Below, in pieces: positions 2,899 to 16,316 of a stretch of 16,316 bases of DNA; the stretch's first letter is position 1, and each line of letters begins with the position of its first letter. This DNA is from Promethearchaeia archaeon (GTDB lineage Archaea > Asgardarchaeota > Lokiarchaeia > Sigyniarchaeales > SOKP01). The notes beneath the pieces were generated by a model. The model was not told the origin of the DNA. It made no database searches and was given only the letters and a program-made list of their open reading frames with translations. The position numbers were made by a program, and so were the translations under genes. The stretch lies in assembly GCA_046497275.1 (NCBI GenBank), contig JAWOFX010000086.1:1-16316 (forward strand), read 5' to 3'.

Positions 2899-3000
2899 AT
2901 CTAAATCAAGATCTCGATACTATTTGAAATTTATTAACTTAACAAACTTAATAACCAGATGCTAATTTTTAGAGCTCTTTTTAGAAGAGAATTTCATTAC

Positions 3001-3017
3001 GAAAAATATTTAATAAG
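3001..3017 (+). promoter_or_regulatory. Putative BRE/TATA promoter of the membrane hydrolase gene
   Basis: GAAAAATATTTAATAAG lies inside the ORF-track N-terminal extension, which supports the later start at 3076. Confidence 0.45.
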
Positions 3018-3075
3018 CTTTCGAGCGAAACAATACTTATCAAATAAAAATAATAATCTTTTCGAGGAAACGAAA

Positions 3076-4185
3076 ATGCCTACATTTGGACATGTTTTCT
3101 ATGGACTATGTCTCCTTATTCCGATTTTTTACTACACAAGGAACAAGTTCAATTACAAAGTCGCCTTTATTTTTTTTGCGAATATGCTTTATGGACCAGA
3201 TACGATGTGGCTTTTTTTTGATACACCATTCCATAGTATTTTGGGGTTTGCTATATTAGCAATACCTCTTTCTTTAGTCTATTCTTATAGCTCCCGATTT
3301 TCACTGCAAAAGTCAGAGGAAGGCTTTCCATTGAAATTTGTTGATCAAGAATTAAGTGAAGTAAAATGGAGGAACGCCTATATTTTAACTGTAGCAGGAG
3401 GAATCTCGCACTTTTTCATTGATCAATTTTTTCACTTTGAAGAATCGATGTGGATATGGTCGTGGCCGGATATAAGTATCACCTATGATCAGATGCTTTC
3501 ATGGGGCGGACCATTATACCATGTGTTTGATCCACTTATGGTAATTGGGGAAATAATCGTGGTGGTAACCATCCTATTATCGTTCTATTATTTCAGAAAA
3601 GGATATAAAGAGACCTTTAAAGCGTTTGTAATTGTTTCATGCATCACCTTTGTCATAATGCTACTCGGTGCATTAGGAGTTGGGAATCTTACTGCAGTTT
3701 TCGGTGGAGAGCGAGAATTGGCGGTGATTGCGTTTGGACTAGTTTATATCTTAATCCCACTCTTTATGTTAATGTATGTTGCTCGGGATGTGGAAGAGAA
3801 TACGATTATGGAACCTGATAAAGTAAAAATCCCACGAGAGCGCCTATTAAAGATAGTGGCATCATTAGCTATGGTGTTCGCGATCTTCTTCATTCTCTAT
3901 GGAGTGCTTGCAATTGTTCTTTCCGATACCCTTGCTGATTTAATTCATTCAATGACGGGCACCGTCTATTATAATACTGAGACAGCATTAGTTTTCTTAG
4001 GAGTTTACTATGCAACCATAGCAACAATCCTTTTGATTGGGTCAATCGGTCTATTCTTTAAAAATAATTTCTGTCGATACTTAGCAATAGGAGCATCCCT
4101 CTACTTTTTCATCATTGGATTCCCATTAGCAATCGCATTGTTTCTATGCGAAAATAAGGTAAAACAGATGTTCAGAAAAGAATAA
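3076..4185 (+). CDS. Polytopic membrane protein, YdjM-like metal-dependent hydrolase with extra C-terminal TM helices
   Basis: Start moved from 2959 to ATG 3076 (GAGGA SD, MPTFGH...). Motifs GH, GPD, FHS and SHFFID match the H / PD / HS / SH-xx-D pattern of the YdjM (PF04307-like) family. About 9-10 hydrophobic segments. Confidence 0.65.
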   Translation: MPTFGHVFYGLCLLIPIFYYTRNKFNYKVAFIFFANMLYGPDTMWLFFDTPFHSILGFAILAIPLSLVYSYSSRFSLQKSEEGFPLKFVDQELSEVKWRNAYILTVAGGISHFFIDQFFHFEESMWIWSWPDISITYDQMLSWGGPLYHVFDPLMVIGEIIVVVTILLSFYYFRKGYKETFKAFVIVSCITFVIMLLGALGVGNLTAVFGGERELAVIAFGLVYILIPLFMLMYVARDVEENTIMEPDKVKIPRERLLKIVASLAMVFAIFFILYGVLAIVLSDTLADLIHSMTGTVYYNTETALVFLGVYYATIATILLIGSIGLFFKNNFCRYLAIGASLYFFIIGFPLAIALFLCENKVKQMFRKE

Positions 4186-10972: not shown

Positions 10973-11272
10973 TTAGAAATTTACAATAGAGTCATTTCCA
11001 AAGATTAAATCAATCACATCTTCGGCTTTGACTAAATTAATTTCATCAGGGATGTATTTAGATAATCCTCTTAATTTGATATCCTCTTCACATGCTGCAA
11101 CTGTCTTTTTTTGGTTAATCGCTTGAGTAATTTCTCTGTTTGTTTTATTGGCGAAATACACTGCATTTTGAAGCAAAAGGATTGTCACGTCATCGTCTTC
11201 TGTATGTTCCATAGCAAACTGAACACCCGTGATGTCTTCACTTGTTATAAAATACAACACTTTTTTACCCAT
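10973..11272 (-). CDS. dsrH: DsrH/TusB-family sulfur relay protein
   Basis: Start moved to ATG 11272 (GGAGG SD; the ORF-track start at 11305 overlaps dsrF). LLLQNAVY and EDIKLRGL motifs, 99 aa, last gene of the E-F-H triad. Confidence 0.8.
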   Translation of the reverse strand: MGKKVLYFITSEDITGVQFAMEHTEDDDVTILLLQNAVYFANKTNREITQAINQKKTVAACEEDIKLRGLSKYIPDEINLVKAEDVIDLIFGNDSIVNF

Positions 11273-11285
11273 TTTTATCAGCCTC

Positions 11286-11630
11286 CTAGAATGGTATTGT
11301 AACATTTGAATTTTCGATCATATCTATGATATCACAATGTTCTCTTACTTCCACTTCATCTATTAAATCATCTTTAGTTAAACCACGTTCGTCAAGGGAC
11401 CGCTTATCAACAAATATATCCAAATCAATATCCTTTAAGAATCCTATGTGCATTGAATACATAGTTTTATCGCAGTCTTTAATAAATGCATATACAGCAT
11501 CATTGATGGCGATTGTTATAGGTTCAAAATCAGCACTCACAGCCACGGACATCCTCAACCCTTCTACGGGATAAAGTGTCCCATGAGGGGGTTGTCGTAA
11601 TAATATAACCACATTTTTTTCTTCTGACAT
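11286..11630 (-). CDS. dsrF: DsrF/TusC-family sulfur relay protein
   Basis: RQPPHG...EGLR, INDAVY and SLDERGL motifs. AAGGTGA SD. Lies between dsrE and dsrH. Confidence 0.85.
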   Translation of the reverse strand: MSEEKNVVILLRQPPHGTLYPVEGLRMSVAVSADFEPITIAINDAVYAFIKDCDKTMYSMHIGFLKDIDLDIFVDKRSLDERGLTKDDLIDEVEVREHCDIIDMIENSNVTIPF

Positions 11631-11641
11631 TTTTAATCACC

Positions 11642-12004
11642 TTAACAAATTGTTATTAATCGATCTGTTTCATCAATAATCTTAGCAAGATCTGGTGTTC
11701 CTGCTCTCTTTATATCACCGCACTCCCTATTAAGGCAGTTTTTCGTGGTACCTCTGACTAATAGACAAAGATTACACAATCTTACTGTAGCTCCTTTTTC
11801 TAATATCTCTTTAAATCCCTGTTCAATGTTAAAAATTCCTTCTACTTCTTTCTGATTTTCTAATACGGCATTTACAGCATCCATATAACAAAAGATTCTT
11901 ACCTCATGTCCTTTATCTAATGCTGCACTGGCTAATTTTACCACAGTTTCGGGGGCTTGAGCCTGATAAGGACCAGCAAAGAAAAGGATTCCTAGTCGCG
12001 CCAT
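11642..12004 (-). CDS. dsrE: DsrE/TusD-family sulfurtransferase
   Basis: GPY, ALDKGHEV..FCYMDAV and LC77NLC80LLVRG, the active-site Cys region equivalent to DsrE/TusD Cys78. GGAG SD. Confidence 0.88.
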   Translation of the reverse strand: MARLGILFFAGPYQAQAPETVVKLASAALDKGHEVRIFCYMDAVNAVLENQKEVEGIFNIEQGFKEILEKGATVRLCNLCLLVRGTTKNCLNRECGDIKRAGTPDLAKIIDETDRLITIC

Positions 12005-12027
12005 TTTAATATCATCTCCTTGTTAAT

Positions 12028-13059
12028 TTAATCTTCTCTCCACATAAACATAAAGTAAGCCGCAATCCAGCATCCAAATACTATACATGCTCCAGCTAAG
12101 ATACTATGTAAGGAGAGTTGTGGCACTCCACCTAAAATATTGGTTATATTACAACCCAATGCTGTTACTGCGCCGAATCCCATTAAGATTCCACCAACAA
12201 ATTGTTTTACTAATGTTAACCCTTCGTTCGGAATTCTTAATTTAAATTCTTTCGCGATTACAGCGCTTATCAAAGCACCGATTACGGCACCAATAATGAT
12301 GGCACCGGTCCAACCTAAAGTTCCTGTAGATGTCAACCAACCACTTATGTTCATCCACCCTCCAGTGATTCCAACAACACCGTTACTGACAATAAAGCCT
12401 ATAGTCAAGATGATACCGATTAAAATTCCAGCCAACCACCAAGGATGTCCCTTCTTAAAGGCTGATTCTACAAAATTCTCTGGTTTTATTAAGGGTTCTC
12501 CGGATTCTTTCTTTCTCTTTATTGCCGGCCATGACCAGAACACAAACATTATTACTATTGCGATGATACCGATAATTAACATAAATATTGGTGTTAAAGC
12601 GCTAAATTCACCAAAAACTGTCAATTGTGATCCAATAGTAATCGATTGTAATGCATTTTTTGTACTTGTAAAAATTCCCCCAGCAGTCATTAATGCTCCA
12701 CCGGTTAATCCTATTGCAGCTACAAAAGATCCCGTCATACCTTCTCCTACTCGATAAGTTGTTCCACTAGCACATCCAGCAGCTAAAACCATTCCTACTC
12801 CAAATATTAAACCACCTACAATAGCAGCGAATGGTTTAAATGGCTTTGGAGAAAGATCAATTACTCCACTTAAAGCAAAAATAGCAAACCCAACCATTAA
12901 CACAGCCAAAGAAACTAAAACAGCTTTTGCTAATTTATATTCCTTTAAAAGGATAATATCTCTAAAGGCGGAATTCATACAAAATCGTCCTCGTTGTAGT
13001 AAAAATCCAAACACAGCTCCGACTATAAGCCCACCTATTAATGCATACCAAAATTCCAT
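12028..13059 (-). CDS. yeeE: YeeE/YedE-family sulfur-compound (thiosulfate-type) transporter
   Basis: Three family Cys motifs: RGRFCMNSAFRD, LAAGCASGT and LGCNI. Also GGLIFGVGM and GGILMGFGA repeats, and about 9-10 TM segments. The GGAGG SD is embedded in the last codons of tusA. Confidence 0.92.
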   Translation of the reverse strand: MEFWYALIGGLIVGAVFGFLLQRGRFCMNSAFRDIILLKEYKLAKAVLVSLAVLMVGFAIFALSGVIDLSPKPFKPFAAIVGGLIFGVGMVLAAGCASGTTYRVGEGMTGSFVAAIGLTGGALMTAGGIFTSTKNALQSITIGSQLTVFGEFSALTPIFMLIIGIIAIVIMFVFWSWPAIKRKKESGEPLIKPENFVESAFKKGHPWWLAGILIGIILTIGFIVSNGVVGITGGWMNISGWLTSTGTLGWTGAIIIGAVIGALISAVIAKEFKLRIPNEGLTLVKQFVGGILMGFGAVTALGCNITNILGGVPQLSLHSILAGACIVFGCWIAAYFMFMWRED

Positions 13060-13063
13060 TTTT

Positions 13064-13303
13064 TTATGCGCCTCCTATTTTCACTAAAATTCGCCATTCT
13101 GAGGTTCCTTGTTTCTCTACTGAAAGCACTTCATGACCAAGAGATTCCATTGTCTCCGGAATTCTCTCCGCAGAAAGTGGATAATCAACCAGAATTTCAA
13201 GAACTTCTCCTGATTTCATTTTCTTTACTTTCCGTTTACTTTTTACATCTGGATAAGGGCATACTTCGCCCGAACAATCCAGTGTTTCCGTAATATCTAC
13301 CAT
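13064..13303 (-). CDS. tusA: TusA/SirA/YeeD-family sulfur carrier
   Basis: LDCSGEVCPYP (CPxP persulfide motif), GEVLEILVD, 79 aa. GAGGA SD. Directly upstream of yeeE with a 4-nt gap. Confidence 0.93.
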   Translation of the reverse strand: MVDITETLDCSGEVCPYPDVKSKRKVKKMKSGEVLEILVDYPLSAERIPETMESLGHEVLSVEKQGTSEWRILVKIGGA

Positions 13304-13785: not shown

Positions 13786-15102
13786 ATGCCGTCCACCTTA
13801 GAAAAGATTAGAATTCTCGGAGAAAATTCAAAATATGATATATGTGCAAGCACATCATCCAGTCGTACTAAAAAATATCCTAAATTGTTTGGAGATACAA
13901 AAGATTGGGTGGGAGCGACAGCAAATGCGGGAATCTGTCATAGTTATACTCAAGATGGTAGATGCATGAGTCTTTTCAAAACTCTTTATACGAATAAATG
14001 CATTTATGATTGTAAATACTGTTTTTCTCAGAGTTGTAAGCATCGAACGAGTTTTACTCCCGAAGAATATGCGAGAACTTTTATGAAATTATATGCGATG
14101 AATGTGGTGGAAGGGGTATTTATCTCCTCTGGAGTGTGCGGAAATGCGGATGATACCACAGAAGAGATGCTGGAGTCGGTTCGTCTACTACGATTTAAAT
14201 ACAATTTCCAAGGGTATATTCATTTTAAATGTTTGCCGGGAGTCAGTCAATATCTTCTTAAAGAAGCGATCGCCCTCTCAGATCGTATTTCCATTAACTC
14301 CGAAGCTTCAAAACAGAGCTATCTTGCAGAAATCTCTTCACAAAAAGATTTCAAAAATGATATTCTTATAAGACAACGATGGATCAAACAAATTCGAATT
14401 GATCACAATAGGGAAGCGATGAAAGAACTGAAAGATATGAAAGAAGATAAAGAATTAGAATTTCAGGAAAAAAAGATTCAAGATCGGCGTGAGAATGGTT
14501 ATAAAAAATTTCGATGGGATGGCGCTCCAATTCTTAACAGTGGACAAACCACTCAATTCGTCGTGGGGGCTGTTGATCAAGAAAGTGATTGGGATTTGCT
14601 TAGAAGAATAGATTGGCAATATCAAAAGATGGATTTAAGAAGAGCATACTTCTCAAGTTTCATCCCAATCGAAGGCACACCATTAGGAAATCGGAATGCA
14701 ACCCCTTTAGAAAGAGAACATAGACTTTATCAAAGTGATTGGTTGCTAAGAATATACCATTATGATATGAATGATTTGGAAAATATTTTAACGGAAGATA
14801 ATAATCTTCCCAACGGAGATCCGAAAATTCACATAGCCCGACATTATTTTCAAGACCATAGTTTAATCGATCCAAATGAAGCCTCATATCGCGAATTGCT
14901 TCGAGTTCCAGGGATTGGTCCTATTTCAGCTAAAAGAATTATAAACTTACAAGCGAAAAAATTTAAAATCAAACGAAGAGAGCAATTGAAATCGATAGGA
15001 GTGGTTCTAAAACGAGCAGATCCATTTCTGAAGATAAATGGAACAAACCAGACTACCATTCACGATTTTTTTGATAATAAATCACAAAACCTATTGAATT
15101 AG
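13786..15102 (+). CDS. Putative DNA modification/repair radical SAM protein (TIGR03916-like) with C-terminal HhH and PIP box
   Basis: KYDIC, GICHSYTQDGRC and C72IYDC76KYC79 (CxxxCxxC, 13999-14022). Also GQTTQFVVGA, R.YFS.F.P, REHRLYQSDWLLRIY and the HhH motif NEASYRELLRVPGIGPISAKRII. Paired with a DUF4130 gene. Confidence 0.9.
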   Translation: MPSTLEKIRILGENSKYDICASTSSSRTKKYPKLFGDTKDWVGATANAGICHSYTQDGRCMSLFKTLYTNKCIYDCKYCFSQSCKHRTSFTPEEYARTFMKLYAMNVVEGVFISSGVCGNADDTTEEMLESVRLLRFKYNFQGYIHFKCLPGVSQYLLKEAIALSDRISINSEASKQSYLAEISSQKDFKNDILIRQRWIKQIRIDHNREAMKELKDMKEDKELEFQEKKIQDRRENGYKKFRWDGAPILNSGQTTQFVVGAVDQESDWDLLRRIDWQYQKMDLRRAYFSSFIPIEGTPLGNRNATPLEREHRLYQSDWLLRIYHYDMNDLENILTEDNNLPNGDPKIHIARHYFQDHSLIDPNEASYRELLRVPGIGPISAKRIINLQAKKFKIKRREQLKSIGVVLKRADPFLKINGTNQTTIHDFFDNKSQNLLN

Positions 15103-15120
15103 ATTTAAGAGAGTGATATA

Positions 15121-15780
15121 ATGAAAAAATCTGGAGATCCATTAAAAGTATTAGGAAGAGGGAAGGGCTATTCTCGGGATAAATTAATTAAAAATATAAC
15201 TCGCCATGAAAAATTCACTCCCGATCTTATACATCATATCAAAAAGCTTCCAGATGTAGTTTTACGTAATCTAGGAACTCCGATGGCTAAAAATCTTATT
15301 AAAATGGTTAGAGAAATCTTTCGAGAATCGTATAGAGCGAAACAATTTACCAGAACGAATATTAATGATCGGGGAGTTCTATATGGAATAGTATTATTAA
15401 AGCATAGAGTGATGGATCTCGTGTTAAATTACTTTCATGAGCGATGGCCGAAATGTATTATCTGCTTATATAACGAGCATACGCAAAAAACAGGGATCAT
15501 GGATCAACAAGGAAAAATAAAAGAAGTCAAGATGTCTCTTAAAGAGGTCGTAGATAAAATCAGTAAACATAGACCAGTTATGCCATACTTCGAGGATATC
15601 CAATTTACTGGGAAAGAAATTTTTGAAACCCTCTATGAAACGCAAAATATTACTGAACGGAATAATAAGCGCTATTTCAAACAAATGATTCCGGATAAAT
15701 GTTATGAATTACCCGGATTGAGAAACGGAATAGAAAAGCGATTTGATGATCAAAATAAGAAACTTGACGATTTTTTATAA
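15121..15780 (+). CDS. DUF4130 / TIGR03915-like putative DNA metabolism protein
   Basis: V-x3-RE-x-x-R-x-K-x-F-x-R, H-x-V-x-x-L-x-x-x-YF-x-x-RW and ERNN-x-R-x-x-x-Q-M-I-P resemble DUF4130. It lies 18 nt after the radical SAM gene with a GAGTGA SD. This family is known to be paired with TIGR03916. Confidence 0.75.
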   Translation: MKKSGDPLKVLGRGKGYSRDKLIKNITRHEKFTPDLIHHIKKLPDVVLRNLGTPMAKNLIKMVREIFRESYRAKQFTRTNINDRGVLYGIVLLKHRVMDLVLNYFHERWPKCIICLYNEHTQKTGIMDQQGKIKEVKMSLKEVVDKISKHRPVMPYFEDIQFTGKEIFETLYETQNITERNNKRYFKQMIPDKCYELPGLRNGIEKRFDDQNKKLDDFL

Positions 15781-15856: not shown

Positions 15857-15915
15857 AAGTATGATCATTCATATAATTGAGAAATTTTTTTAATCCCCAT
15901 AAAAAGGTTAATACT

Positions 15916-16316
15916 ATGAGTGAAAAAATCAAATATGATTTTCCAGTAGGGTATCGAAATTTACATGAACAAGAAAATATAAACTTTCAGCTGAATAGAC
16001 TAATTTTAAATGGAGCTAAGGTTGAAGAAGTTAAGCAATTAGCACCAAAAATAAATGATTTTAATGATTGGAAAAGAGAATTAATCGTATTGGCAGAAAA
16101 AGCGCTCAATGACAATCGAGAATCAAATGCTGCGTGGTATTATCGAGCGGCACAATTTTTTGTTTCTCCAGACGATCCCGATAAAGAAAAGCTATATGAT
16201 AAATTTATTGATTTATTTTATTCTGTCTACAAGGAAGTTGAAGATCAGAAATTAGAGATTCCTTATGAAAGCATAACCCTCCCAATTATTTATTTAAGAA
16301 ATGAAAATAAGAAAGG
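15916..16316 (+). CDS. Alpha/beta hydrolase (FrsA / 2,6-dihydropseudooxynicotine hydrolase-like), N-terminal fragment running off the window
   Basis: Not in the ORF track. Manual translation gives MSEKIKYDFPVGYRNLHEQENINFQLNRL...DWKRELIVLAEKA...AAWYYRAAQFF...IPYESITLPIIYL, open to the window end. W...AEKA...YYRAA.F...IPYE is typical of this family's helical N-terminus. The catalytic motif lies outside the window. Confidence 0.7.
   Translation, partial: MSEKIKYDFPVGYRNLHEQENINFQLNRLILNGAKVEEVKQLAPKINDFNDWKRELIVLAEKALNDNRESNAAWYYRAAQFFVSPDDPDKEKLYDKFIDLFYSVYKEVEDQKLEIPYESITLPIIYLRNENKK

Follow-up and report, generated by a model that had tools for sequence, protein, structure and literature searches.

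Near the end of a 16,316-nucleotide contig from a Promethearchaeia archaeon (JAWOFX010000086.1 of assembly GCA_046497275.1; this whole stretch is the window referred to below), two adjacent genes encode a radical S-adenosylmethionine (SAM) protein and a DUF4130 protein. We consider it reasonably likely (a probability of roughly 0.6) that this TIGR03916/DUF4130 pair is, in bacteria and archaea alike, a clamp-tethered radical SAM DNA enzyme whose docking peptide has been adapted to the clamp that each domain of life uses, with both archaeal subunits docking. The same estimate covers the whole mechanism developed below, in which the window's genes would be the archaeal form of a widespread radical SAM (TIGR03916/COG4277) and DUF4130 DNA-processing pair. 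Judging from sequence comparison, the family probably works tethered to a sliding clamp. The gene pair itself is annotated in databases, and earlier work has discussed it both as a possible repair system (PMC3765255, PMC8565304) and as a complex predicted by modelling (10.64898/2026.08.19.745780). In the literature searched, we found no paper mentioning clamp-binding motifs in the TIGR03916/DUF4130 family, no biochemistry for any of its members and no radical SAM enzyme among the reported clamp clients.

The features that carry the argument are the two genes and the C-terminal tails of their products:

13786-15102, + strand: radical SAM gene (P0001, 438 amino acids), with TIGR03916, Radical_SAM and HHH_3 matches.
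15049-15072, + strand: PCNA-interacting peptide (PIP) box-type motif QTTIHDFF, residues 422-429 of P0001, 9 residues before the stop; recognised by ortholog conservation in a flexible tail.
15121-15780, + strand: DUF4130 gene (P0002, 219 amino acids), short, with a probable DHHA1-like core and without the N-terminal TIGR03915 region or a uracil-DNA glycosylase (UDG) domain.
15751-15777, + strand: PIP-like tail QNKKLDDFL, residues 211-219 of P0002, at the extreme C-terminus; recognised by ortholog conservation.

The initial annotation, made from the letters of the window, had remarked that both proteins end in PIP-like tails, and this holds: the tails are read directly in the translations, exceed chance expectation and are conserved in orthologs. 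The P0001 tail fits the pattern Q-x-x-[LIM]-x-x-[FY]-[FYWLIM], and the NKKLDDFL of P0002 has Asn in the Gln position. Genome-wide, the strict PIP pattern falls within the last 25 residues of 27 of the 2656 crudely called open reading frames (ORFs; 1.0%), and the [QN]-type pattern within the last nine residues of 0.4%. The 120 closest P0001 hits are 73-94% identical to it, and those with names are Asgard proteins; for both proteins, the named closest homologs come from Lokiarchaeota/Promethearchaeota, Hermod-, Hod-, Thor-, Odin- and Heimdallarchaeota metagenome-assembled genomes (MAGs). All 120 of these radical SAM orthologs keep N-Q-x-T-[LIM]-x-x-[FY], and in orthologs of 429 residues the PIP-type motif is the very C-terminus. 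Likewise, the end of almost every one of the 120 closest DUF4130 orthologs reads [NK]-K-K-[LIM]-[DN]-[DE]-[FY]-[FL].

The same architecture is found across archaea. Of the 83 archaeal radical SAM proteins that were complete (all from named genomes of Asgard, Methanothrix, Thermoplasmata, Woese-, Nano-, Micr- and Iainarchaeota and Methanofastidiosa; the ORFs of all collected loci were called crudely), 81 carry x3-[LIMV]-x2-[FWY], with a median of 2 residues from the aromatic residue to the end; the motif opens with Q in 36 and with D in 32. When the sequences are aligned, it stands directly after the last conserved block, KRAxPF-x-x-x-G. For the partner, [LIM]-x-polar-[FYW] lies within the last 14 residues of 61/73 complete archaeal proteins and slightly further in for about six more, and the motif aligns as a single column block. 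In the AlphaFold2 (AF2) models, the predicted local confidence (pLDDT) of the last two blocks is 61 and 43 for P0001 and 67 and 59 for P0002, whereas the cores are well folded. Linear motifs are expected to look like this.

The host genome (3.85 Mb, 30% GC, 98.9% complete; the window is contig C143) encodes one PCNA gene, PolD DP2 and an archaeal FEN1, so that the label "archaeal" given to the module from its letters is correct; the host is a Lokiarchaeial (Asgard) organism, whose order also contains the genomes of Promethearchaeum syntrophicum MK-D1 and Harpocratesius. FEN1, PolD DP2 and Y-family polymerases are PCNA clients, and in this genome they carry tails of the same type as the module (PolD DP2, KQQKLSDFF; FEN1, QVSLDQFMGSKK; Y-family polymerase, KQATLMNYIY).

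Similar tails were seen elsewhere in the genome. Two DUF72 (PF01904) proteins have canonical PIP-type tails (G000:C34:2153-2845, +, GQTSLDKYFSN; G000:C127:11533-12213, +, KQKSLSDFI) and, going by these peptides, may be further unrecognised PCNA clients. A second FEN1-like paralog (G000:C13:17149-18165, -) scores 270 bits on fen_arch, below the cut-off, and ends in the PIP-like QKTLDMIF.

In bacteria, the radical SAM tail is of the other clamp type. The beta-clamp motif Q[LM]x[LMF][FW], searched as one pattern, is present in 31/32 bacterial versus 0/83 archaeal radical SAM proteins. For Q-x-x-[LIM]-x-x-[FWY] within the 28 C-terminal residues, the counts are 34/83 archaeal and 0/32 bacterial. 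Across the 30 loci of the Sporomusa class, the tail of every complete radical SAM protein contains [EKD]-Q-[LM]-[ST]-L-F, and other bacterial proteins end similarly (Agrobacterium QLSLL, Phaeobacter QLALF, Parabacteroides QLILPF). Distant homologs among the cluster representatives also end in QLSLF-like peptides, and the four representatives that have both a beta-clamp motif and a name are all bacterial (Lachnospiraceae, Armatimonadota, Selenomonadales, CPR3). Control ORFs flanking the same loci showed the beta-clamp motif in 0/513 cases, strict PIP in 1.3% and relaxed PIP in 5% (relaxed patterns, 5-9%). In the alignment, the bacterial motif is placed after a linker of variable length. The partner tail motif, by comparison, occurs in 0/32 bacterial partners (the 32 complete proteins of this sample are 29 from the Sporomusa class and 3 from other Bacillota). 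Both motif types also persist as linker peptides where the radical SAM and DUF4130 proteins are fused.

Such fusions were found on both sides: the bacterial P0281 and P0293 have QLSFF or QLSLF in the linker, and P0235 (664 amino acids), from an Asgard archaeon, has NQTTLCNFF in the linker and QNRKLDDFS at its end. One Asgard family contains a second, distinct module lineage (L089-L092, in genomes G033, G027, G029 and G031 of the same order), with a radical SAM protein of about 400 amino acids that scores higher on TIGR03916 and a DUF4130 protein of 260-300 amino acids. PIP-like tails end both proteins of this lineage as well (H-A-R-L-D-E-W and Q-K-S-L-L-D-F).

These tails could have another role. 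They might serve as a latch between the subunits, as a site for some other partner or as a conserved amphipathic end, with only a superficial likeness to PIP and beta-clamp peptides; we regard this as unlikely, and several observations nevertheless speak for it or weigh against clamp tethering. The canonical Gln is often replaced: archaeal radical SAM tails have Asp (32), Tyr or His in its place, and DUF4130 tails have Asn, Lys or Thr. Many copies are therefore PIP-like only. Relaxed patterns occur in 5-9% of control ORF ends, and AF2 places a low-confidence helix at P0001 residues 425-436. The PIP and beta-clamp types split largely along one deep tree branch, an arrangement in which shared ancestry alone would cluster the labels, and therefore few independent events lie behind the association; the samples also hold many close relatives, in the archaeal one from Methanothrix and Asgard archaea. 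Two points beyond the tails weigh against the mechanism as a whole: spore photoproduct lyase (SPL) is not among the Foldseek matches listed for P0001, whose core resembles HydE, BioB, LipA and ThiH, and the module is patchy in Asgard genomes and therefore dispensable.

Independent switches are few, and the argument for clamp tethering is one of maintained, host-matched motifs and not of statistics. Motif type fits the host clamp in 31/32 bacterial and 81/83 archaeal proteins with no cross-over, and the motif stays while the surrounding linker is free in length and sequence. The tails have the same flavour as those of the genome's own DP2, FEN1 and Y-family polymerase. A subunit latch in particular is disfavoured, as the published AlphaFold3 (AF3) model of the bacterial pair has the dimer form through the DUF4130 domain and the bacterial partners sampled have no such tail. 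The initial annotation had proposed a radical-chemistry machine that works on PCNA, and of this proposal the clamp coupling has gained strong comparative support, from PIP tails in archaea and beta-clamp motifs in bacteria.

Further features of the locus bear on what the tethered proteins might do:

13999-14022, + strand: codons of the [4Fe-4S]/SAM cluster motif C72-x3-C76-x2-C79 of P0001 (CIYDCKYC in the translation).
14395-14529, + strand: charged helical insert of P0001, approximately residues 204-248, missing in most homologs (seen from match pattern and alignment gaps).
14860-14997, + strand: helix-hairpin-helix (HhH; ComEA-like) DNA-binding domain of P0001, residues 359-404 (Pfam HHH_3, 36.2 bits).
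15103-15120, + strand: intergenic spacer of 18 nucleotides with a Shine-Dalgarno (SD)-like GTGAT core (sequence atttaagagagtgatata).

The two ORFs, their common direction, the 18-nucleotide gap and the SD can be read directly, as had been described. The GTGAT core lies 4 nucleotides from the ATG of P0002 and is complementary to the 3' end of the genome's 16S rRNA (...GGATCACCTCCT), which we located on contigs C34 and C67. Strict pairing of the two genes, also claimed initially, is borne out by co-occurrence and adjacency in relatives: both genes co-occur in the same genomes and are adjacent (41 relatives surveyed), and a DUF4130 partner adjoins the radical SAM gene in 107/117 loci.

The family assignments of the initial annotation were likewise upheld, P0001 lying above the TIGR03916 cut-off and P0002 above that of Pfam DUF4130. 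P0001 scores 346.1 bits against TIGR03916 (346.8 bits in the genome scan), where the NCBIfam cut-off is 343.5; the margin is narrow because of the helical insert and the different tail. Alignments of 37 and 93 homologs show no variation at C72, C76 and C79. Most representative homologs match P0001 as two segments, 1-203 and 249-428, and the insert corresponds to gaps in most rows of the radical SAM alignment; AF2 predicts helices at residues 189-216 and 221-232 with pLDDT 78-92. The sole PDB sequence match of P0001 is the ComEA-related protein 2duy (E 3e-4). Its AF2 model (pLDDT 89.9, predicted TM-score (pTM) 0.88) has a fold similar to generic radical SAM barrels (HydE, LipA, ThiH, BioB and viperin, using Foldseek), and the chemistry is therefore not readable from structure. 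SPL-like chemistry was considered, and no SPL was among the NCBIfam, PDB-sequence or listed Foldseek matches; a protein that is not listed is not thereby excluded.

P0002 scores 47.2 bits against Pfam DUF4130 (PF13566; gathering threshold 27) over residues 38-194. Against TIGR03915 it reaches 39.8 bits, below the cut-off of 112.25, and its match covers only model positions 89-235 of 243. It thus lacks what corresponds to the N-terminal third of the bacterial protein, and the ORF cannot be extended upstream. Archaeal partners are short in general, with a median of 211 amino acids versus 272 for bacterial partners, which score 222-252 bits over the full TIGR03915 model. The residues F76, R78, H95, F105, R108, Y172, Q175, R180 and N182 are near-invariant across archaea and bacteria. 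The AF2 model of P0002 (pLDDT 85.7) has its confident core at residues 20-160. The DUF4130 core appears to resemble the linker and DHHA1 part of RecJ, Cdc45 and GAN by VIA-align, with Foldseek matches that are weak only, and a PDB sequence search with P0002 gave nothing meaningful.

At its other end, P0002 has a peptide that is confined to its own clade. Residues 6-18 (window 15136-15174) fit D-P-L-[KE]-V-x-G-[RC]-x-[KR]-G-[YH]-S, which is kept in the Asgard clade of DUF4130 proteins and is not in other archaeal or bacterial partners; AF2 confidence is low there. This peptide may be a second linear motif.

Taken as a clamp-tethered enzyme, the pair would work as follows. The two proteins would form a heterodimer, as in a recent preprint that describes a DHH/DHHA1-like fold and an AF3 heterodimer for the bacterial pair (10.64898/2026.08.19.745780). 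The radical SAM subunit would bind DNA through the HhH domain observed in it, and the DUF4130 subunit, as a putative catalytically decayed DHHA1-like module for binding nucleotides or single strands, would help to place the substrate strand. By analogy with the radical SAM family, the [4Fe-4S]/SAM site would generate a 5'-deoxyadenosyl radical, and this would take a hydrogen atom from a damaged nucleotide. The motifs suggest that two flexible PIP-type tails, one per subunit, would dock on PCNA and tether the complex at replication or repair sites; as both archaeal subunits are predicted to dock, one heterodimer could fill two of the sites on a single PCNA ring. Bacterial homologs would be tethered likewise to the beta clamp via one QLSLF-type tail. 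The core would have no need of a UDG, and the UdgX-like domain on bacterial DUF4130 proteins would be a lineage-specific accessory.

Repair is preferred over modification in this scheme because the bacterial operon belongs to damage regulons, being under SOS or DNA-damage control in the LexA/SOS regulons and the DdaA damage regulon (PMC8565304, PMC12392091). We think it improbable that the pair is instead a nucleic-acid modification enzyme that lays an epigenetic or anti-phage mark on DNA bases or acts on RNA, as RlmN and MiaB do. The NCBI name does keep "modification" possible, and the preprint likens the complex to MiaB and RlmN, with a single-stranded nucleic acid lying in a narrow channel as the favoured substrate (10.64898/2026.08.19.745780); a patchy distribution and a tree unlike the species tree suggest horizontal spread. 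However, the clamp motifs suggest an enzyme that works on DNA, at forks or repair patches, and not on RNA, and the SOS and DNA-damage regulon membership of the bacterial operons and the fusion of a UdgX-family domain, which binds uracil- or abasic-site-containing DNA, to the partner in Alphaproteobacteria also speak against modification. In addition, the window's neighbours are absent from 87 archaeal flanks, although the search of these flanks did not extend to restriction, methylase or defence genes.

The relation to UDGs could be followed further. As initially described, P0002 has no UDG domain and neither neighbouring gene is a UDG (tusA lies upstream and is divergent, and the downstream ORF has no family), and a fusion of DUF4130 to a UDG-like domain does exist in bacteria: the Agrobacterium partner matches both TIGR03915 (222 bits) and TIGR03914/COG1573 (346 bits), the latter named "UdgX family uracil-DNA binding protein" by NCBI. 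UdgX excises uracil and forms a covalent bond to the abasic site (PMC10359453). The suggestion that the absence of a UDG is special to this locus does not hold, as a short DUF4130 protein without UDG is the archaeal norm and is common in bacteria; all 32 complete partners of the bacterial sample are without UDG, and so is the Parabacteroides partner. A phmmer search with four Asgard UDGs, which has limited sensitivity, detected no UDG homolog in the flanks of the 117 loci. The downstream ORF was rejected as a source of either the lost N-terminal part of DUF4130 or a UDG, having no Pfam or NCBIfam match and no conservation.

The initial annotation had further suggested that a host UDG, or abasic sites, might be supplied in trans. 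No match to PF03167 (the UDG superfamily) was found in the 98.9%-complete genome or in any of the six genomes of its genus (0/6), so a host UDG in trans is without support. The genome does encode two HhH-GPD glycosylases and endonuclease V, and abasic sites supplied in trans by other glycosylases are therefore still conceivable. A base excision repair branch in which the archaeal core acts after such a glycosylase, on abasic sites or uracil-derived intermediates, would agree with these genes and with the bacterial link to UdgX-type domains that excise uracil and attach covalently to the abasic site. We nonetheless hold it to be very doubtful, considering that a PF03167 gene is present in 10/41 relatives versus the module in 29/41 and is missing from the genome and genus, that the limited-sensitivity search found no UDG beside the 117 loci, and that many bacteria have the pair but a partner without a UDG domain.

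The preferred reading, a clamp-tethered DNA repair enzyme, concerns a family of wide distribution. We found the module in 65/201 Asgard genomes sampled, including 34/45 of the window's family and none in two other large families, in the cultured Promethearchaeum syntrophicum MK-D1, and in 63/101 genomes of one bacterial class. A phylogeny was built with FastTree after removal of the tails and is unrooted. The window falls inside an Asgard clade of 24 rows (support 100), which is nested in an 83-row group (Shimodaira-Hasegawa (SH) support 93) comprising almost all of the named archaeal and almost all of the PIP-type sequences; two Methanobacteriaceae rows just outside join it in the next larger group (SH 87). 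All beta-clamp-motif sequences fall outside the 83-row group, as do the named bacteria except L031. Within archaea, the topology departs from the species tree. A phylogeny had been called for initially as a check for bacterial-to-archaeal transfer, and a recent event of this kind is not indicated: the window gene sits in the archaeal group and the tree shows no sign of recent bacterial origin of the module, while any ancient transfer would lack direction in an unrooted tree.

The exception, L031 (DATKTP010000212.1, from a 'Candidatus Deferrimicrobium sp.' MAG), is an archaeal-type module with the PIP-type tails QTQLDNFL and NSLLDFL, and lipid genes whose weak matches are of archaeal type are among its neighbours. 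It represents either a misbinned contig or a recent archaea-to-bacteria transfer.

Beyond the two genes, the neighbourhood of the module is not conserved. A tusA-yeeE-dsrE-dsrF-dsrH operon (10973-13303, - strand) stands head-to-head with the radical SAM gene. A sulfur-relay link was considered and rejected: a comparison with the flanks of 87 archaeal loci gave no homolog of tusA, yeeE, dsrE/F/H, URO-D or the downstream ORF, and the tusA operon therefore seems to lie beside the module by chance. The downstream ORF (15877-16314, + strand; likely ATG at 15917) runs off the end of the window and has no Pfam or NCBIfam match. A 408-amino-acid ORF (2959-4185, + strand) between a TPR protein and a GH94-like gene likewise has no match in either database.

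If clamp tethering is correct, the pair would be the first sliding-clamp client among radical SAM enzymes. Oxygen-independent radical chemistry would then take place right at the replication fork or repair patch, carried out by a core independent of uracil glycosylase. The family concerned is widespread (roughly one in three of the sampled Asgard genomes, numerous methanogens and DPANN archaea, and bacteria), and a protein of its name is listed in a review table of DNA-repair genes of the last universal common ancestor and minimal genomes. The presence of the archaeal core in a genome without a UDG-superfamily gene suggests a conserved function separable from the UdgX accessory. The host-matched docking peptide also indicates where and with what to assay the enzyme, namely on clamp-loaded primed or nicked DNA under anaerobic conditions.

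Several known systems can be compared with the pair. Aravind and colleagues called the family "SplB-like" (PMC3765255). Like spore photoproduct lyase (SplB), the pair would be a radical SAM enzyme acting on DNA, which is shown for SPL and proposed here; unlike SplB, P0001 has HydE, LipA, ThiH and BioB as its nearest folds. For the DUF4130 core, the compared system is the DHH/DHHA1 superfamily (RecJ, GAN/RecJ-Cdc45, NrnA and the C-Ala domain of AlaRS), to which the Foldseek matches are weak. UdgX and HMCES/SRAP, which act covalently at abasic sites, are related through genomic association in bacteria (the TIGR03914-DUF4130 fusion), and the paper that defined SRAP and ImuB-C as SOS components also ties DUF4130 to SplB-like radical SAM enzymes and UDGs (PMC3765255). 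The window and genome differ from UdgX systems in having no PF03167 gene.

The archaeal PCNA clients (FEN1, PolD DP2 and Y-family polymerase) share with the module a Q-x-x-[LIM]-x-x-[FY]-[FLIM] peptide in the last ~20 residues, after a folded domain. Unlike canonical PIP clients, P0002 has Asn at the Gln position, and its docking is predicted from sequence. Another system compared is the bacterial COG4277/DUF4130 operon, with which the window shares the TIGR03916 family, the CxxxCxxC motif, a C-terminal HhH domain followed by a flexible tail, gene order, tight coupling, an obligatory DUF4130 partner and a clamp-type peptide at the radical SAM C-terminus. In contrast to the bacterial operon, where partners have ~250-300 amino acids, or 490 with UdgX, the archaeal partner has 219, falls below the TIGR03915 cut-off without the first ~88 model positions, and has no UDG domain. 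The archaeal radical SAM protein has an extra charged helical insert and a tail of the PIP type instead of QLSLF, and the archaeal partner, unlike the 32 bacterial ones (0/32), carries a PIP-like tail of its own.

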